Of a stretch of 9,251 nucleotides of DNA, positions 1-9,251 are shown one piece after another. A program made the position numbers and the translations under genes. Below the pieces are notes generated by a model, which was given only the letters and a program-made list of their open reading frames with translations, was not told the DNA's origin and made no database searches. The stretch's first letter is position 1; the number at the start of each line of letters is the position of its first letter. Origin of the DNA: a virus (lineage: Duplodnaviria; Heunggongvirae; Uroviricota; Caudoviricetes); the IMG/VR virus record IMGVR_UViG_2529293246_000005; one strand, given 5' to 3'.

Positions 1-258
1 ATGCAAACCGTTATTTTTGGTCGTTCGGGTTGCCCTTACTGTGTGCGTGCAAAAGATCTGGCTGAGAAATTGAGCAATGAACGCGATGATTTTCAGTATC
101 AGTATGTAGATATTCGTGCGGAAGGGATCACTAAAGAAGATCTACAACAAAAGGCAGGTAAACCCGTAGAAACCGTGCCGCAGATTTTTGTCGATCAGCA
201 ACATATCGGCGGCTATACCGATTTTGCTGCATGGGTGAAAGAAAATCTGGACGCCTGA
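1..258 (+). CDS. grxA: Glutaredoxin 1
   Basis: 85-aa ORF with CPYC active-site motif (GCPYCVRAK); translation matches my recollection of E. coli GrxA along its full length; stop at 256-258, followed by a hairpin terminator. Confidence 0.93.
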   Translation: MQTVIFGRSGCPYCVRAKDLAEKLSNERDDFQYQYVDIRAEGITKEDLQQKAGKPVETVPQIFVDQQHIGGYTDFAAWVKENLDA

Positions 259-267
259 TCGTCTGAC

Positions 268-300
268 AAGCCCTCGCGTTGAGGGCTTTACTGATTTTTT
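268..300 (+). terminator. Rho-independent terminator downstream of grxA (overlaps the 3' end of convergent ybjM)
   Basis: Stem AAGCCCTC (268-275), loop GCGTT, stem GAGGGCTT (281-288), then a T-rich tail ending in TTTTTT (295-300). Confidence 0.6.
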
Positions 301-665
301 CTGTGCTGTGGTTTAAACAAACTACTGATAAATAAGAAACACAGTGCCCCCAGCGCACACCAGAACACCGCGCTTAGTAACCATGCCAGCTCTTGCCAGA
401 ATGAGCGCGTCGGTGAAAAAAACAGCCGCATAATGAGCATCGAACAGGGTGCCGCCAGCATTGCGCCAAACAGAGGTTTCAGGACTTCTCTACGCTGTGA
501 AAAGAAGCTGGCCACTGCTCCAGGAAGAATGAAAAATAGCAAGCCGATTTCAGGATGCCCGGCAGCCCGAAAAGCGCCTTTCATGTGCGTCGCCAGAAAA
601 AGGCACACCACAATGAAGAGGACAAAACAGCAGATTGCCCCCGCCCAACGTTGTTTATGTTTCAC
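288..665 (-). CDS. ybjM: Inner membrane protein YbjM (DUF-type small multi-pass membrane protein)
   Basis: 125-aa strongly hydrophobic ORF convergent with grxA, as in the E. coli grxA-ybjM-ybjL neighbourhood; strong SD AGGAGG 5 nt upstream of a GTG start at 663-665 (minus strand). Confidence 0.8.
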   Translation of the reverse strand: MKHKQRWAGAICCFVLFIVVCLFLATHMKGAFRAAGHPEIGLLFFILPGAVASFFSQRREVLKPLFGAMLAAPCSMLIMRLFFSPTRSFWQELAWLLSAVFWCALGALCFLFISSLFKPQHRKNQ

Positions 666-934
666 TCGTTCCTCCTGACACTGCGTCTATCGAACACATT
701 TTTCGCCAGTGTGGCGTTCAGTAAGATAAAGCCGCTTCGCATTCCATGCTAATATAGGCCAACGCAATTCATATAGCCGTTGATACCTAATGTGATTACA
801 CTAGTAAAATATATTGTTACTTTACTATCGTTTAGGTGCGCTGAATGAATCTGCGCCCTGAATTCTGGTAAAAAACATTATCGTAAATTACCATTTCTTT
901 CAACAGCTTACTAGTAAACAAGAAGTTAGCCTCC

Positions 935-2620
935 GTGAATATAAACGTCGCCGAATTGTTAAATGGGAATTACATTCTGTTATTATTTGTGGTCCTCGCG
1001 CTTGGGCTATGTCTCGGAAAGTTACGACTTGGTTCGATCCAACTGGGTAATTCCATTGGCGTTTTAGTCGTATCGCTGTTATTAGGCCAACAACATTTCA
1101 GCATTAACACCGATGCGCTTAATCTTGGCTTTATGCTGTTTATTTTCTGCGTCGGGGTCGAAGCCGGACCGAACTTTTTTTCCATTTTTTTTCGCGATGG
1201 GAAAAATTACCTAATGTTAGCACTGGTGATGGTTGGCAGTGCGCTGGTGATCGCCTTAGGGTTAGGTAAGCTGTTTGGCTGGGATATTGGCCTGACGGCC
1301 GGTATGTTAGCAGGCTCTATGACGTCGACACCGGTTCTGGTCGGTGCTGGCGATACACTGCGTCATTCCGGCATGGAAAGCAGGCAGCTCTCACTGGCAC
1401 TGGATAATCTGAGCCTCGGGTATGCCTTAACCTATTTAATCGGTCTGGTGAGTTTGATTGTTGGTGCGCGTTACTTGCCGAAATTGCAGCATCAGGACTT
1501 ACAGACCAGCGCCCAGCAAATCGCCCGCGAACGTGGCCTGGACACTGATGCCAACCGTAAGGTTTATTTACCGGTGATCCGCGCCTATCGCGTCGGCCCG
1601 GAGCTGGTGGCCTGGACCGACGGCAAAAATCTGCGTGAACTGGGTATTTATCGACAAACCGGCTGCTACATTGAACGTATTCGACGTAACGGGATTCTGG
1701 CAAATCCAGACGGTGATGCCGTGCTACAAATGGGCGATGAAATAGCGTTGGTAGGCTATCCCGACGCCCATGCCCGACTCGATCCCAGCTTCCGTAACGG
1801 TAAAGAAGTTTTCGATCGTGACCTTCTCGACATGCGTATCGTCACTGAAGAAGTGGTCGTTAAAAACCATAACGCTGTAGGTAAACGTCTCGCACAACTG
1901 AAGTTGACCGATCACGGTTGCTTCCTTAACCGCGTCATTCGTAGCCAGATTGAGATGCCGATAGATGACAACGTCGTGCTTAACAAAGGTGACGTTTTAC
2001 AAGTCAGCGGTGATGCCCGTCGCGTAAAAACCATCGCCGATCGCATCGGCTTTATCTCGATTCACAGCCAGGTCACTGACCTGCTGGCATTTTGCGCCTT
2101 CTTTGTTATTGGGCTGATGATCGGGATGATCACCTTCCAGTTCAGCACATTCAGTTTCGGCATGGGGAACGCTGCCGGGTTGTTATTCGCCGGAATTATG
2201 CTGGGCTTTATGCGTGCTAACCACCCGACCTTCGGTTACATTCCGCAAGGTGCATTAAGCATGGTGAAAGAGTTCGGCTTGATGGTGTTTATGGCAGGCG
2301 TTGGTCTGAGCGCCGGTAGCGGTATTAATAACGGCCTGGGCGCGATTGGCGGTCAGATGTTGATTGCCGGATTAATTGTCAGTCTTGTGCCCGTGGTTAT
2401 CTGTTTCTTGTTCGGTGCTTATGTATTGCGAATGAACCGCGCACTGTTGTTCGGCGCAATGATGGGCGCACGCACCTGCGCGCCGGCAATGGAGATCATC
2501 AGTGATACAGCTCGCAGTAACATCCCTGCGCTGGGCTATGCGGGCACCTACGCAATCGCCAACGTCCTGCTGACGCTGGCAGGGACAATCATCGTCATGG
2601 TATGGCCAGGATTAGGATAA
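935..2620 (+). CDS. ybjL: AAE-family (aspartate:alanine exchanger-like) putative transporter YbjL with two central RCK_C/TrkA-C domains
   Basis: 561-aa ORF; hydrophobic N- and C-terminal halves flank a soluble central region (approx. aa 190-370); translation matches my recollection of E. coli YbjL ([13 protein letters not shown]...). Apparent GTG start at 935, TAA stop at 2618-2620. Confidence 0.92.
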
Positions 2621-2732
2621 AACTGAAGTTGCCCTGAAAATGAAATTTTTTTGCACAACCGCAGAACTTTTCCGCAGGGCATCAGTCTTAATTAGTGCCA
2701 CTGCTTTTCTTTGATGTCCCCATTTTGTGGAG

Positions 2733-2779
2733 CCCATCAACCCCGCCATTTCGGTTCAAGGTTGATGGGTTTTTTGTTG
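2733..2779 (+). terminator. Rho-independent terminator downstream of ybjL
   Basis: Perfect 10-bp stem CCCATCAACC (2733-2742) / GGTTGATGGG (2760-2769) with a 17-nt loop, followed by TTTTTTGTTG (2770-2779). Confidence 0.55.
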
Positions 2780-2855
2780 TCTGAAATTTATGCCGTTTAA
2801 AATCATGACGTTAGAATCACTGTTTTTTAACGATGGCGACAAAATGGCGGCAGCG

Positions 2856-3074
2856 TCAAAGAGAGAGCGCCACCTGTCCTGATTTCATTGGATGCGGCTG
2901 AACCGGATTTGACTCTTTTGGCGTTGCAATCGAACGAACAAAAGTTTCATGGGTTACAAAAGTATGGCTGCAGTTAATATTCTGGCACTGGTTGTAACGC
3001 TCTTTGGTCAATGAAGATACCTGAAAACTGCTGCGAGTATGGGCGGCACTTCCACACAGTGGGCAAATCATCAT
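2856..3074 (-). CDS. ogr: Ogr/Delta-family zinc-finger late-gene transcriptional activator (phage 186 B / P2 Ogr homologue)
   Basis: Translation MMICPLCGSAAHTRSS...KERYNQCQNINCSHTF has the C-x2-C...C-x4-C zinc-finger spacing and resembles P2 Ogr. Position directly after gpD matches P2/186 order. Start chosen at ATG 3072-3074, with a GGGAGA SD upstream on the minus strand; the ORF track's longer 83-aa start is probably an extension. Confidence 0.85.
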   Translation of the reverse strand: MMICPLCGSAAHTRSSFQVSSLTKERYNQCQNINCSHTFVTHETFVRSIATPKESNPVQPHPMKSGQVALSL

Positions 3075-3164
3075 TTTTCGAGTTCTCCCCATTTTTGCTA
3101 AATTCACAATAATGATACCGCATTATTCCATTTTGCAAACTTAAAAGTTCTCCATTGCGAAGAA

Positions 3165-4265
3165 TCATTCCATTTCGAAATCATCAATCCTCACTTCAAG
3201 CTCCAGACTGGTCGTAAAACCGTTATCCGGGCTGACGGTATGCGTCAGAGTCGTAATGGTCCATTCCGCATCATCTATCGGCTGTTTAAAACCACTGACC
3301 TTCACAGGCATTTCCGTGTAGAGATCTGCCCGCCCTTCTGCCAGTTGTAGCGAAAATGACGCAACGCCGCGTTGCAGGCGTTCCCACTGCATTTTCGCCG
3401 CTCGTTCGGCGTTGCTCCGGTTGGCATAAGTGCGATTAAGTACCAGCACGTTTTCATCCGTACCCACCAGGTAATCGCCCTGCTTCGCTTCCGGCTCTTT
3501 CTTCTGCTTCTTAGTTCTGCGCTTACGCTTCACCGTGGTGCTTTCTTTCTTCGCAGGTTCGCGGGTATGCAACCAGCTGGCAATTACGCCCGTGTAGGCT
3601 CCGCGATCTGCCAGGGTAAATCGGTGACTGTCGCCGTCCTTGCGTGTGATAGTGATCACTGGCAGAGGTTTACCAGTGGCGCTTTTGCCCTGCCCCTGCC
3701 GGATGAATAACAGATTGCCATTTTTCACCGACGCGATGGCACCGTACTGTCGCGCCAGCCGCATCAGAAAACTGCCGTCACTCTCATTAGTCTGGTCTAT
3801 ATGCTCCACGGGCTTATCCGACAGGTCTTTACCCAGTGCCATCTTCAGCTTGTGCCGCGCGGCTATTTCCTTCACCACTTCCCCGACGGTGGTCTTATGC
3901 CACGATTTTTCACGGCGGGTATTCAGCGTTTCCCGAAAATCAGCACTTCGCGCCCGGATAGTCAGGCGGTCCGGTGCGCCAGTGTGTTCAATCTCGTCCA
4001 CCGTGAATGCCCCTTTCGGGAAAAGCGGCTGCCCCTTCCAGCCCAGCGCCAGCGTAATAACCGCACCACGGCGCGGCAGCACGATTTTTCCGTCAGCGTC
4101 ATCCAGCTCCAGATCAAGCTGGTCCGCTTCAAAGCCCCGGTTGTCCGTCAGCGTCAGACTCATCAGGCGGTTATCCAGCACAGTGGTGATATCCCTGCCC
4201 TCAATACTGATGCTGAATGCGGGAGTTTTGTTGCCTTTGTTAAGCAGTTCAGAGCTGAAATTCAC
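3165..4265 (-). CDS. D: Phage tail protein D (P2 gpD-like late control/tail protein)
   Basis: 366-aa ORF; translation resembles P2 gpD-family proteins; lies between gpU and ogr as in P2/186; 4-bp ATGA overlap with the upstream gpU. Confidence 0.88.
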   Translation of the reverse strand: MNFSSELLNKGNKTPAFSISIEGRDITTVLDNRLMSLTLTDNRGFEADQLDLELDDADGKIVLPRRGAVITLALGWKGQPLFPKGAFTVDEIEHTGAPDRLTIRARSADFRETLNTRREKSWHKTTVGEVVKEIAARHKLKMALGKDLSDKPVEHIDQTNESDGSFLMRLARQYGAIASVKNGNLLFIRQGQGKSATGKPLPVITITRKDGDSHRFTLADRGAYTGVIASWLHTREPAKKESTTVKRKRRTKKQKKEPEAKQGDYLVGTDENVLVLNRTYANRSNAERAAKMQWERLQRGVASFSLQLAEGRADLYTEMPVKVSGFKQPIDDAEWTITTLTHTVSPDNGFTTSLELEVRIDDFEME

Positions 4266-4747
4266 GACAGCAGCCCTCCCACCGTTTTACTGATATCGCT
4301 TAAGGCAGACGTTGCCGTATCCTGCAGATTATTCAGTTGCGCACTGAGATCACCGAACATATCGGACAGGGATTCATCCACTCGTTTGAGCGACAGGGTG
4401 AACTCAATCCGGCGCGGCATACCGTCGCGGAAAAACTCCGTTTTAGTCTGATTCAGTCCCTCAATCACATACATGCCGTAAATCGTGCCGCTGCCTTCAA
4501 TCAGGGGCCATGCTTTCCCCTGTTCTGCCATCTGCTCCAGTGCCAGCAACGACAGCCTGCCGCCTGTTATCTCCGGCATAAGAACACCGGAAAGCGTCAG
4601 CATGTCGTTGTCCGGTCCCAGAAACTGCGTGGACGGACGACGATTTACCCGGCTGTTAGCCACATGTCGCCAGCTGCGCTGATACTGCAGTTCCTGATAC
4701 GGCACGGTGCGCAGCATAAACACGTACAATCCCAGCACCATCATCAT
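4262..4747 (-). CDS. U: Phage tail protein U (P2 gpU-like)
   Basis: 161-aa ORF starting [10 protein letters not shown]..., resembling P2 gpU; translationally coupled (ATGA overlap) to the upstream tape-measure remnant and to the downstream D. Confidence 0.85.
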   Translation of the reverse strand: MMMVLGLYVFMLRTVPYQELQYQRSWRHVANSRVNRRPSTQFLGPDNDMLTLSGVLMPEITGGRLSLLALEQMAEQGKAWPLIEGSGTIYGMYVIEGLNQTKTEFFRDGMPRRIEFTLSLKRVDESLSDMFGDLSAQLNNLQDTATSALSDISKTVGGLLS

Positions 4748-6144
4748 GCGTCGTATCCCCCCTGATCGCTGTAGTTACTCCTGGCTTTTGCCTTCAGCCT
4801 GCGTTCACGTTCATCAAGCTGGCGGGCCACCTCCCGCGCAATATCCTGCGCACTTTGTCCTGGCTGTGTCTGGATGATGATCTGCGTCGGTGCTTCAATC
4901 CGGTAAATGGGCGGCACAGTAGCTGCACGACTCACCATCGCTTCACCGCCTTTTGCGGGAAGCGCCAAAGGATGCAACGGTGGAAGCTCTGCTGGCGCGG
5001 CAGCAACACCCATCATTCCGGCGACAACGGCAGCCAGTGCAGCTGTATTTCTCCGGCTGGTCACATTTGCCGGGCCGTTAACAATTTCCGGCCCGTTTTC
5101 ACCGACGATGCCAAACTGCCCGCGCGGGATATACCCGCCGCTGTCATACATCCCCGCAAAGCCATATCCCCATGATGGAAAACCACCCGATGGCATCATC
5201 ACTTTACCGTCTGCATTCACCGTCGCAGGTTGCTGACGCGTCACGCTTTCCGGCAGTTTTGCCTTTGCGGCCTCTTTACTGACAATGCCGAGCTTCTCCA
5301 GCAACCAGGAAACGCCGGATTTCAGGGAGTCCAGCGGATGCATGACCATATTCAGCCCTTCCGCCAGTGCCTCCCCGAATCGCCGCCCCATTGCCGCTGC
5401 GCTCTGCAGTTCGGCAGAGGTCGACTTAACGGGCGTCAGCAGATCAGTAAACCAGCCCCACAGCGCCTGCACTTTGTCGCCAATCCACTGGAACACGGGC
5501 TTAAGCGGTTCGAACGCTGCACTGATGGGACCTGCCGCCGCTTTGAATCCTTCCACCACGCCACCGAGAAATGCGGTGATGGGTTGCCAGTATTTCCAGA
5601 CAACCAGCGCCACGCCCGCCAGTGCAGTAACCACAAGACCTATCGGACTGAGCAGAGCACCTAACAGACCAGATATGGCATACAGGGCAACGCGCAGCAT
5701 CGCCAGTGGACCAGATGCCAGTACTCGCAGCACCGTGCCTGCGGCGGCCAGTCCACCGCGCAGTACCGCCAGAGGATTCATAAACATCACAGCAACAGCA
5801 CGTAAACCGGATACCGCACCTGCTGCAACACGTCCGATCTCTGCAGTTGCGCTCATGACGTAATGCGGCAGTTTCTCTTTTGCAACCTCATTAATCGGTA
5901 CACATGGCAGGCAGTGAATCTGTGCCAGAAAACCATCTACCAGCGTTGAATCTTCAGTCAGATCGGTAAGCAGCCAGATTTCTGGTGCGGTTAATAAATG
6001 AGGCTGAGCTGGGTTCAGCTTGTTCCGCAGAATCTGCACATTCATGCCTGCACGTTCTGCCAGTTGCACCAGATTGTGGCGCAGTGCAAATGCACGACAG
6101 GCTTCATCAAAATGTGGATGTTTGGAAACTTGGTAATCAAACAT
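4744..6144 (-). CDS. Chimeric ORF: phage 186 CII-like N-terminus (approx. first 100-115 aa) fused in frame to a tail tape-measure (gpT-like) C-terminal region; deletion scar, likely non-functional as either protein
   Basis: N-terminus [24 protein letters not shown]...[24 protein letters not shown] matches my recollection of the 186 CII (Phage_CII family) N-terminal domain. The remainder is Gly/Ala-rich with hydrophobic segments and ends in a basic tail ([21 protein letters not shown]), sitting immediately upstream of U and D where gpT belongs. Start set at ATG 6142-6144; the ORF track uses an upstream TTG. Confidence 0.72.
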
Positions 6145-6176
6145 GGTCAATGCCTCTGATGTATTTCAGAATCGAA

Positions 6177-6398
6177 CTAATTAAGGTTTAGATTGCATTC
6201 TGAAAGCGCATCAACGGTCATGGCTGCTATGTTGATCATCACTTTTTCGCGTTTTTTATCTTTGCGCAAACGGTGACGGATAAGGCGTCCATCAGCCAAC
6301 ATGTCATTGATGGTATCGATGGACAGTCCTGTCAGCTCGCTATAGCGTTCAATAGTCACATGAGGCGTGGTAAGAGTGATTGAAATGTTAGGTCTCAT
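6177..6398 (-). CDS. apl: Apl/Cox-like small DNA-binding protein (excisionase / lytic-switch repressor-type)
   Basis: 73-aa ORF directly upstream of the cII-like gene and divergent from cI, the 186 apl position. Translation ([35 protein letters not shown]) has an HTH-like segment resembling Apl/Cox-family proteins. GAGGA SD about 10 nt upstream. Confidence 0.65.
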
Positions 6399-6523
6399 GA
6401 TGCAACATTCCTCGTTTAATGATGATTAATCAGGACGAATACGGATCGTTTGTATTTTGTGAACACCATAAACATACGATCGCACTATGAAATCGTCAAG
6501 ATAAAAGTTCACTTGGAGTGACC
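6399..6523. promoter_or_regulatory. Immunity switch region between divergent apl and cI (predicted lytic and lysogenic promoters and operator sites)
   Basis: 125-bp AT-rich divergent intergenic region. It contains a 10-bp inverted repeat with one mismatch, GATCGTTTGT (6444-6453) / ACATACGATC (6472-6481), and a TTAAT-gatg-ATTAA palindrome-like element (6416-6429). Confidence 0.5.
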
Positions 6524-7093
6524 ATGAATTTGGAGAAAGGCGGACGAGGCGCTATAGAGCGCATGGTAGAAGCTTATGGATTCAAAACTCGACAGGCGTT
6601 GTGCGATCATTTAGGAATCTCTAAAAGTACACTCGCTACACGCTACATGCGTGACTCATTCCCAGCAGAATGGGTAATCCAGTGCGCCCTTGAAACGGGC
6701 ACCTCGCTTAATTGGCTCACAACTGGACATGGTTCAAAGCAAACTTCAGGTAATACAAATACGATGGAAGTTGCTAAATATGTATTATCTGATGGTGCCT
6801 TGCGTGAAGACGGTTTTTATATTTTTGATAAGGAATTTCTACCCTCTACGTTTAAAAAACCTTTTGTCATCACAGATAACAATTCTGAATTTATTTGTGA
6901 TAAAGAATTTGATGATATACGTGATGGTAAATGGGTAATAAGTATTGATGGCGAAATAACAATCCGCGACATTACTCGTTTACCCGGTGGAAGAATCTTC
7001 GTTGAAGGTGGAAACAGATCCTTCGAGTGCAAGATAGAAGATGTTGAAATAATTGGAAAAATTATAAGTTTAACAATTAAGTACGTTAGGTAA
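6524..7093 (+). CDS. cI: Phage 186-type CI immunity repressor
   Basis: Translation (IERMVEAYGFKTRQALCDHLGISKSTLATRY...CALETGTSLNWLTTGHG...ITIRDITRLPGG...FECKIEDVEIIGKI) resembles 186 CI, with an N-terminal HTH and a C-terminal oligomerisation domain. Start chosen at ATG 6524 with GGAG 5 nt upstream; the ORF track starts at GTG 6518. Confidence 0.85.
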   Translation: MNLEKGGRGAIERMVEAYGFKTRQALCDHLGISKSTLATRYMRDSFPAEWVIQCALETGTSLNWLTTGHGSKQTSGNTNTMEVAKYVLSDGALREDGFYIFDKEFLPSTFKKPFVITDNNSEFICDKEFDDIRDGKWVISIDGEITIRDITRLPGGRIFVEGGNRSFECKIEDVEIIGKIISLTIKYVR

Positions 7094-7108
7094 TACCGGG
7101 AGGAAACT

Positions 7109-7300
7109 ATGCTTGGTAAGGTATTTTTTGTGGTTTTATCATGTTCTTTGTTATTAAACCCACTAACTACCTATGCTAAAAATTATCCTTGTTCTGGGAA
7201 AAAGGGAGGTGTCTCTCACTGTACCTCCGATGGAAAGTTCGTTTGCAATGATGGAACTATTAGTAAATCAAAAAAAATCTGTACTAAAAACTCGCGATAA
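7109..7300 (+). CDS. Small secreted cysteine-rich protein of unknown function (putative moron)
   Basis: 63-aa ORF with a strong SD (GGGAGG, 5-nt spacer) only 15 nt after the cI stop. The N-terminus [23 protein letters not shown] looks like a type I signal peptide. The predicted mature part is about 40 aa, Lys-rich, with four Cys. Visibly AT-rich relative to flanking phage genes. Confidence 0.6.
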
Positions 7301-7486
7301 TTTTTGCTTTTATATCTGCGCCTAATATAACAATGAGCCGCAGGCTAACCGCAAAAGTCACATACTCACATAGCAAAAAATAGCCAACTTCATTATGGCT
7401 TCAGTGAGATGTATGGTCGCAAGATTTCATACATTGACACTGGTTATACATACAGTAAAAATGCTCTCTATTGGAGGGCATTTTTT

Positions 7487-8518
7487 ATGGCAGTACGAAA
7501 ACTCACCACAGGAAAATGGCTTTGCGAATGTTACCCCGCCGGACGTAGTGGGCGTCGTGTGCGTAAACAATTCGCCACCAAAGGCGAAGCACTGGCTTTT
7601 GAGCGTCACACGATGGAAGAAACCGAAGCAAAGCCCTGGCTGGGCGAATCAGTAGATCGTCGAACCCTGAAAGACGTGGTTGAGCTATGGTTCAAACTAC
7701 ATGGTAAATCTCTGACTGCTGGGCAGCATGTCTATGACAAATTGCTGCTGATGGTTGACGCTCTGGGCAATCCCCTTGCAACCGATCTCACATCTAAAAT
7801 GTTTGCCCATTATCGAGATAAACGACTGACAGGTGAGATCTACTTCAGCGAGAAATGGAAGAAAGGGGCCAGCCCGGTCACCATTAACCTGGAGCAAAGC
7901 TATCTAAGTAGTGTTTTTAGCGAACTATCCCGCCTGGGCGAATGGTCGTATCCAAACCCACTGGAGAACATGCGAAAATTCACCATCGCAGAAAAAGAGA
8001 TGGCATGGCTTACCCATGAGCAGATTGTTGAACTGCTGGATGATTGCAAACGTCAGGACCCAATTCTGGCACTGGTAGTCAAGATATGCTTAAGCACAGG
8101 CGCACGCTGGCGAGAAGCAATAAACCTTACCCGATCACAGGTGACCAAATACCGAATTACCTTTGTAAGAACGAAGGGGAAGAAAAACAGAAGCATCCCT
8201 ATCAGTAAAGAGCTTTATGAAGAGATCATGGCGCTTGATGGGTTCAATTTCTTCACAGACTGCTATTTTCAATTTTTATCCGTGATGGAAAAAACGTCTA
8301 TCGTGCTCCCTCGCGGTCAACTTACACACGTTCTGCGTCATACGTTTGCGGCGCATTTCATGATGTCGGGTGGAAACATCCTTGCTTTGCAAAAAATCCT
8401 CGGACATCACGACATTAAAATGACTATGCGTTATGCTCATCTATCACCTGATCACTTAGAGACAGCTCTTCGTTTCAATCCACTAGCAACTTTGGATGTT
8501 ACTAAATCAGATTCTTAA
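7487..8518 (+). CDS. int: Tyrosine site-specific integrase (P2/186 Int family)
   Basis: Translation from MAVRKLTTGKWLCECYPAGRSGRRVRKQF resembles P2 Int. Catalytic signature present: STGARWREA (Arg), HVLRHTFA (H-x-x-R), MRYAHL (Tyr nucleophile). Start at ATG 7487 with a GGAGGG SD; the ORF track's start at 7409 is an upstream extension. Confidence 0.9.
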   Translation: MAVRKLTTGKWLCECYPAGRSGRRVRKQFATKGEALAFERHTMEETEAKPWLGESVDRRTLKDVVELWFKLHGKSLTAGQHVYDKLLLMVDALGNPLATDLTSKMFAHYRDKRLTGEIYFSEKWKKGASPVTINLEQSYLSSVFSELSRLGEWSYPNPLENMRKFTIAEKEMAWLTHEQIVELLDDCKRQDPILALVVKICLSTGARWREAINLTRSQVTKYRITFVRTKGKKNRSIPISKELYEEIMALDGFNFFTDCYFQFLSVMEKTSIVLPRGQLTHVLRHTFAAHFMMSGGNILALQKILGHHDIKMTMRYAHLSPDHLETALRFNPLATLDVTKSDS

Positions 8519-8528
8519 AGGTTCAAGC

Positions 8529-9251
8529 ATGGTTAAGTTTTTGTTTCAATTCCCAATATTCGACTTCTCCTTAACATTTGATATTATCGAGACGTTAATC
8601 ACTCATAGCGAATCATCAATCGCTAAGGGCATAGCAGAATATAAAGACAAAGGACCTGAAGAATATATAATTGAAATATCTCCGGAAGATGGTGTATATC
8701 AGTCAATTGATCATTACATGGGACTCACCAGCTCATCGCTAGATCTCGATGAAATGTTTTTAGAATACTACCCAAGTATTATCCGCAGGTCAGTATTCTT
8801 AACTATATTCGGAATTTTTGAGCACGAAATAGAAAAATTCTGTAACAACTTTGCTAATAGACATCATTCTCCTATAAATGTTTCAGATCTCAAAGGAAGT
8901 GGATTTGAGAGGAGCCATCTATTTATCAAAAAAATGATAGGGATGAAGTCAACATCCCACTATTCGAATATCAAAAAAATAACAAAATTAAGAAACAGTT
9001 GTGCGCATAATGATGCAAAATACTTAGAAAACGATGGGCAAAATATTAAAAGCATTATTGAACTTATAGAAAAATATCCTGATTTTTTTAAAAAAGATGG
9101 AAAACAGGTCCTATTTATGGGGGGCTCGTTAAGCATGATCTTGAACTCATTCAAAGAGTATCTTTCTGATGTTGAAAGAGCCTTAGATGAATTCGAAAAA
9201 CAAAGCACTAGTGGCGACAAAGTGGCGGCAGCGGTTGGCATTACCCCGTAA
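8529..9251 (+). CDS. Hypothetical protein with an HEPN-like R-x4-H motif (candidate RNase toxin / abortive-infection-type cargo); function unverified
   Basis: 240-aa AT-rich ORF beginning 10 nt after the int stop on the same strand; AAGG SD-like element upstream of ATG 8529. Motif K-L-R-N-S-C-A-H at nt 8985-9008 (Arg codon 8991-8993, His codon 9006-9008). Sequence looks predominantly helical. I do not recognise it as any characterised protein. Confidence 0.55.
   Translation: MVKFLFQFPIFDFSLTFDIIETLITHSESSIAKGIAEYKDKGPEEYIIEISPEDGVYQSIDHYMGLTSSSLDLDEMFLEYYPSIIRRSVFLTIFGIFEHEIEKFCNNFANRHHSPINVSDLKGSGFERSHLFIKKMIGMKSTSHYSNIKKITKLRNSCAHNDAKYLENDGQNIKSIIELIEKYPDFFKKDGKQVLFMGGSLSMILNSFKEYLSDVERALDEFEKQSTSGDKVAAAVGITP

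Follow-up and report, generated by a model that had tools for sequence, protein, structure and literature searches.

The prophage junction downstream of ybjL is a known attachment site of 186-type P2-like phages

Results

The host/prophage junction downstream of ybjL in the window (the whole stretch of 9,251 nt of DNA that was analysed) is an ordinary, known attachment site of 186-type P2-like phages. The ogr-side copy of its core, attR in the arrangement B-O-P', is the 27-nt sequence ATGGGTTTTTTGTTGTCTGAAATTTAT at 2765-2791, as identified by empty host sites, a four-way alignment of att sequences and the annotated attR of phage 4LV2017. With the second copy found beyond the window end in near-identical genomes, the boundaries of the element are settled and the HEPN-like gene at the right end of the window is phage cargo, not host DNA. 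The gain is a clean annotation of attR, of the arm-type sites and of an IHF-like motif; related prophages from several genera of enterobacteria occupy the same site, and no new biology is involved.

Gene content of the window

Genes were assigned from open reading frames, profile matches, PHROGs and the RefSeq annotation of near-identical loci. Host DNA comprises grxA (1-258), ybjM (288-665, minus strand) and ybjL (935-2620). The last prophage gene on the ybjL side encodes an ogr/Delta-like late activator (2856-3074, minus strand; PF04606, E = 5e-22) and is followed, also on the minus strand, by gpD (3165-4265), gpU (4262-4747), a chimeric ORF (4744-6150) in which the N-terminus of CII (PF06892, Phage_CP76) is fused to the C-terminus of a tape-measure protein, and the gene of a Cox/Apl-like excisionase and repressor (6177-6398; phrog_575, E = 6e-31). 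The plus strand carries the CI repressor gene (6518-7093; Phage_CI_repr and Phage_CI_C), a 63-aa ORF between the repressor gene and int (7109-7300; phrog_6000, in some RefSeq records given as YdcA family protein), the gene int of a 186-type tyrosine integrase (7487-8518; Int_N and Phage_integrase domains) and a HEPN-like cargo ORF of 240 aa (8529-9251). The Cox/Apl-type excisionase and the CI/CII switch genes are thus all present, cII as part of the fusion ORF.

Bases 2792 to the window end are, with high confidence, what a deletion has left of a 186-type P2-like prophage. The window matches the grxA-to-tape-measure region of full prophages over 1-5813 and the cII-to-cargo-ORF region over 5806-9251; as read from these two alignments, the 8-nt overlap ACCGGATA at 5806-5813 marks a deletion of ~25 kb by microhomology. 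The resulting tape-measure::cII junction had 0 matches in 5426 complete E. coli genomes and a one-genome-per-species set. The remnant has a size of ~6.5 kb, without head genes and without other tail genes, but retains int, apl, the ogr-side att site, both pairs of arm sites and the HEPN-like gene. Its extent, judged by comparison with near-identical loci, is from 2792 (with the core from 2765) to ~100 nt past the window end.

Attachment core and prophage boundary

A query of 901 nt across the ogr-side junction was compared with 5426 complete E. coli genomes, of which 5419 matched. In 1115 of the 5426 genomes ogr adjoins ybjL, so that the site is occupied in about one fifth. In the unoccupied genomes listed, the match stops at query position 492, which is window position 2791; by this comparison the host/phage boundary is 2791/2792. 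The empty site of E. coli K-12 reads ...GGTTCAAGGTTGATGGGTTTTTTGTTATCTAAAACTTAT-CTA-CTA, the final CTA being the stop codon of rcdA on the opposite strand. The original prediction, which had noted that the ybjL terminator hairpin is closely followed by the ogr stop codon (2856-2858, minus strand) and had put the att junction at about 2780-2855 or overlapping the terminator, was right on both points.

The window ends before the int-side copy of the core, which was therefore deduced for this prophage from 24 complete E. coli genomes that are 99.5-99.8% identical to window 5806-9251. Most of the IMG/VR int relatives end ~45 nt after int and were of limited use for junctions. In the 24 genomes a second core copy, ATGGGTTTTTTGTT(A/G)TCT(A/G)AAATTTAT, was found ~74 nt past 9251, next to the rcdA stop codon. 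In one of them (L003) the stop codon of the cargo ORF is followed by 73 nt of phage DNA, ATGGGTTTTTTGTTATCTAAAATTTAT, CTA-CTA and rcdA; this int-side copy (attL) is at L003 10520-10546, outside the window. A query for the right junction sorted the 5426 genomes into three classes: full matches, in which cargo, junction and rcdA are contiguous (n = 24); matches that start at a 22-mer described below, from prophages with another cargo gene or none; and matches that start at query position 271/272, the first base of ATGGG (= L003 10520), from empty sites. Since empty sites match up to 2791 and resume at the second core copy, the core corresponds to window 2765-2791. It is duplicated at both prophage ends, where the second copy was read in the near-identical genomes, and single-copy in unoccupied host sites. 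The alignment of attB, attR, attL and attP gives the textbook pattern B-O-B', B-O-P', P-O-B' and P-O-P'.

These data very probably reflect site-specific recombination by the tyrosine integrase into the terminator common to the convergent genes ybjL and rcdA. The 27-bp core would be ATGGGTTTTTTGTT(G/A)(T/C)CT(G/A)AAA(T/C)TTAT, with the int-side copy directly before the rcdA stop codon. Past base 9251 of the window we would expect TAACCACCACTGACC...CATAA, then ATGGGTTTTTTGTTATCTAAAA(T/C)TTAT and then CTACTA with the rcdA stop codon, all within ~105 nt.

The octamer pair

The original prediction had proposed the octamer GGTTCAAG, at 2754-2761 and 8520-8527, as a possible degenerate att core. The octamer indeed occurs exactly twice, but the first copy is at 2753-2760, one position off; the blocks of G plus a T-run described behind both copies are present at 2769-2779 and 8537-8547. 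With an att core at 2753-2779 and 8520-8547 the element would stop just behind int, and the HEPN-like ORF would belong to the host or to independent DNA. The exact 8-mer at both places, the T-rich blocks after each and an extended match of 26 nt with 73% identity speak for this, but the left copy is unchanged in empty sites such as that of K-12, and Klebsiella phage KP12 lacks the right copy in its contiguous, cargo-less attP, as does a prophage that carries another cargo gene. Moreover, the right "T-run" falls within codons 3-7 (KFLFQ) of the cargo ORF, and homology to empty sites resumes only after this ORF, not at 8520-8547, in the very comparison that had been suggested as a check. Matches of this kind are also frequent: 9 of 200 shuffles contained at least two copies of GGTTCAAG, 11.5% of all 60-nt windows in the sequence have some exact 8-mer in common with 2733-2855, and the extended match is no better than a dozen fortuitous families in the window. 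We give an octamer core practically no chance of being correct; by these counts the pair is a product of chance.

The second copy (8520-8527, plus strand) is located in the 10-nt spacer from the int stop codon to the start of the cargo ORF. It is 805 nt within the boundary of the element and is no att element. A longer and unambiguous direct repeat beyond the window had been named in advance as evidence against the octamer pair, and such a repeat, of 27 nt, is found in the near-identical genomes. Because this longer repeat is located beyond the window end, the HEPN-like ORF is inside the integrase-defined element and not outside, as had been considered.

Repeated 22-mers flanking the core

The best direct repeat in the window, which the original prediction did not contain, is a sequence of 22 nt, TGGCGACAAA(A/G)TGGCGGCAGCG, at 2834-2855 (TGGCGACAAAATGGCGGCAGCG) and 9212-9233 (TGGCGACAAAGTGGCGGCAGCG); the copies are identical at 21 of 22 positions and no such repeat was found in 200 shuffles (0/200). 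Each 22-mer consists of two TGGCGRCA units with a spacing of 11 nt. The copy in the P' arm, TGGCGACA-AAA-TGGCGGCA-GCG (2834-2855, plus strand), abuts the ogr stop codon, the copy in the P arm reads TGGCGACA-AAG-TGGCGGCA-GCG (9212-9233, plus strand), and both are predicted pairs of arm-type sites. [quoted passage not shown] The consensus of 186-type arm sites is tgccGCCActt (Nilsson et al. 2011, PMC3448106); its exact reverse complement, AAGTGGCGGCA, occurs in the P-arm copy. By homology with phage 186, the 22-mers would be the P' and P arm-type sites bound by the N-terminal domain of Int.

The spacing of these sites is highly constant. The P-arm 22-mer and the core are separated by a constant distance of 113-114 nt, independent of the cargo. 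Nine genomes of other species, including Escherichia spp., Dryocola, Citrobacter, Silvania, Enterobacter and Buttiauxella, also carry a prophage at this ybjL terminator. In these nine, in the window and in KP12 (11 sequences), the P' arm pair begins 69 nt from the start of the core, and the offsets are unchanged although the P' spacers of the nine prophages are strongly diverged. The P' arm also contains an IHF-like motif, AATCATGACGTTA (2801-2813, plus strand), which differs from WATCAANNNNTTR at position 6 (T, not A); the relaxed pattern WATCANNNNNTTR, with position 6 free, is present at offset 37 from the core start in all 11 sequences. This predicted IHF-like site would sit between the core and the P' sites.

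The 22-nt repeat was also considered as the recombining att core itself, as no direct repeat in the window is better, its copies are close to the two ends of the prophage DNA and it is far beyond chance. But empty sites have neither copy, and their homology breaks off at 2791 to resume at the 27-nt core; moreover, both copies are found 183 nt apart in one contiguous attP, and the repeat resembles the arm-type and not the core-type sites of phage 186. This candidate was dropped, since the empty sites end at 2791 and a single attP holds both copies; the probability that it is the core is close to nil. Very unlikely, too, is that the repeat has no function and arose as a by-product, such as a duplication caused by cargo insertion or a remnant of int coding sequence. 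The P-arm copy does overlap coding sequence, the tail of the ancestral int and here the tail of the cargo ORF, but the 22-mer is also present in cargo-less phages and the P' copy is non-coding. Furthermore, the pair and its 69-nt spacing are conserved in the nine other species despite the diverged spacer, and the pair is also found in relatives that integrate at ssrA and in phage 186. The P-arm 22-mer is non-coding in a prophage with a different cargo gene (L005).

P2-like prophages at the 3' end of ssrA (tmRNA), seen in L094, L096-L099, L102, L105 and L111, have the same arm pair in swapped order (TGGCGGCAAAATGGCGACAG) next to ogr; the same pair beside a different core is as expected for arm-type sites.

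The P arm of L003 contains the 15-mer CTAACTTATTGTTTT twice, 18 nt apart, at 10468-10482 and 10486-10500 (22-36 and 40-54 nt past the window end). By analogy with the Apl sites annotated in the int-side part of the 186 attP, these tandem copies between the arm-type sites and the core may be sites for an Apl/Cox-like excisionase or for IHF. A comparison by eye of the tandem 15-mers with the cI–apl intergenic region revealed no convincing shared motif of the Apl type.

Crossover region and terminators

Two positions of the core differ between attP (G.CTG) and attB of E. coli (A.CTA). At these positions the ogr-side junction is phage-type and the int-side junction is host-type, whereas the 14-bp segment ATGGGTTTTTTGTT (2765-2778) is identical in attB, attP and both junctions. 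The distribution of the polymorphisms thus points to strand exchange, in this lineage, within or at the edge of ATGGGTTTTTTGTT, and the predicted overlap of 6-8 bp would be placed within TTTTTTGTT.

Two IMG/VR records (L078 and L079) have the phage-type core variant GCCTGAAATTTAT at the int-side junction (~3628-3654), beside an rcdA with slight divergence. Either the attB of a host lineage would be the same as attP at all 27 positions, or the crossover would have been more to the right; the crossover position deduced from the polymorphisms is therefore not valid for every lysogen, or the host attB was different. In a further IMG/VR contig (L013, 4339-4460) the stretch that follows the int-side core (GATGTTTAAAATTATTCGGTTAC...) looks like the P' arm of the phage and not like rcdA; the element may be a tandem or a remnant one, or the flank in this host may be different.

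The core overlaps the intrinsic terminator of ybjL. The original prediction of a terminator hairpin was correct: a strong hairpin with a T-run is present, but the stem is located at 2729-2773 (plus strand) instead of 2733-2779; the fold has an energy of -23.3 kcal/mol (z = -3.75) and the T-run extends to 2775. The hairpin was seen by folding, and a simple terminator scan of 2500-3200 reported no terminator, probably because the hairpin loop is large and branched. The terminator is host DNA, and K-12 has the same sequence in its empty site. The final 5 nt of the 3' stem arm and the T-run belong to the core, which extends 13 bases further; the ybjL terminator is complete after integration. On the int side, the half-hairpin AACCCGTTTACATAA of the phage folds together with the core at -9 kcal/mol and a T-run follows. 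The AACCCGTTTACATAA brought by the phage would thereby rebuild a hairpin with T-run at the int-side junction while ybjL retains its own terminator, and the rebuilt hairpin is presumably the terminator of the int/cargo transcript.

Relation to known phages

An attP was rebuilt from the two prophage ends and searched against phage records. Klebsiella phage KP12 (OM835953) gave a match in one piece from the 22-mer to ogr with 97.2% identity. Its attP has the order int end, TGGCGACAAAGTGGCGGCAGCG, 91 nt, ATGGGTTTTTTGTTGTCTGAAATTTAT, 42 nt, TGGCGACAAATTGGCGGCAGAG and ogr stop codon, with a core identical to window 2765-2791. The annotated attR of phage 4LV2017 (Elveevirus, KY271398), ATGGGTTTTTTGTTGCCTG, starts at the same base as the core in the window. 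Identity to the reconstructed attP is ~97% both for the KP12 attP and for the ogr-side junction and P' arm of 4LV2017. However, both are complete phages of Klebsiella hosts without the HEPN-like cargo, and the int of KP12 has retained the original tail, which extends through the P-arm sites.

Published work already covers the site itself, the core and the type of arm sites, and the public record of 4LV2017 also has the core annotated as attR. Prophage ΦECO1 is located at 916812-948276 of E. coli HS and shares its integration site with ΦECO2, ΦECO3 and ΦSEN1 (Nilsson, Karlsson & Haggård-Ljungquist 2011, Bacteriophage 1:207, PMC3448106, Table 1); ΦECO2 is the prophage of E. coli ATCC 8739 and ΦECO3 that of CFT073. 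In the HS genome, the ends of ΦECO1 are between rcdA and ybjL, both on the edge of the 14-mer. ΦECO1, the prophage in the window and its near-identical relatives are all flanked by the 3' ends of rcdA and ybjL, and each has AACAAAAAACCCAT/ATGGGTTTTTTGTT at its two ends. The ΦECO1 group has in common with the window the rcdA–ybjL site, the core 14-mer, the 186-type switch genes (cI, apl/cox and cII) and the type of integrase and arm sites. ΦECO1 has an ORF of 89 aa in the slot behind int, whereas the copy in the window is a ~6.5-kb remnant with HEPN-like cargo.

In the record of coliphage 186 (NC_001317), Int arm-type sites with the consensus YAYCGCCAYTY and the crossover region are annotated as predicted, together with IHF and Apl sites, the Apl sites being on the int side of attP. 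Read in the direction from int to B, the arms of 186 are ATGGCGATAAAGTGGCGGTAG on one side and GTGGCGATAGAATGGCGGTGG on the other, with the same paired design of 11 nt: TGGCG(A/G)(T/C)A units are paired in both arms and in the same orientation as in the window. Phage 186 also has an ORF (Orf69) in the slot between int and attP and a terminator within attP. It differs by a third site on one arm, by TA where the arm units of the window read CA, and by its core, since the core in the window is the terminator of a protein gene, unlike that of 186. The attP of P2 is similar in having int beside it, paired direct arm repeats on both sides of a core, and an excisionase of the Cox type, but has the arm consensus tgTGGaCa, the residues Y/D/R in the N-domain of Int where the window has W/E/Y, and another core and other host sites.

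Integrase and cargo gene

The integrase encoded next to attP contains the domains PF24624 (Int_N, E = 2.7e-32) and PF00589 (E = 4e-22) and is 55% identical to Int of phage 186 over the full length. In its N-domain, GKWLCECYP is aligned with GGWICELYP of 186, and W11, E14 and Y16 are conserved. The residues W, E and Y were proposed to discriminate the 186 type from P2, which has Y, D and R (Nilsson et al. 2011, PMC3448106).

Cargo is lacking in KP12 and at least 62 of 80 IMG/VR relatives, where int continues across the P-arm sites and ends with ...LPSGDKVAAAVGITP. The int in the window stops early (...LDVTKSDS), so that its C-terminus differs from that of KP12 Int; the last 13 codons of the cargo ORF, SGDKVAAAVGITP*, correspond to the ancestral int tail. 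By this alignment, the ancestral C-terminal tail of int is replaced in the window, and the cargo ORF reads through the ancestral tail and the P-arm sites. The HEPN-like ORF is cargo that was inserted between int and the P arm and is therefore inside the element.

In another prophage (L005, 4273-4542) the same slot contains an unrelated ORF of 89 aa, which is also present in E. coli HS, and homology resumes at the 22-mer; two IMG/VR records (L018 and L069) have two further cargo lengths. From these sequences, the slot between int and the P-arm sites looks like a small hot spot for cargo. The cargo ORF in the window has the motif RNSCAH at residues 155-160. Its only match in Pfam is HEPN_RiboL-PSP (E = 0.004, below the curated cut-off), the HEPN models of PADLOC gave sub-threshold matches, and in PHROGs it belongs to phrog_21382, a family of unknown function. 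We tentatively suggest that the recurrent slot between int and the P arm holds here an uncharacterised single-gene cargo of the HEPN-like (Rx4H) type, perhaps a new prophage-borne anti-phage or abortive-infection toxin. The HEPN-like module is carried by 24 of the 5426 complete E. coli genomes.
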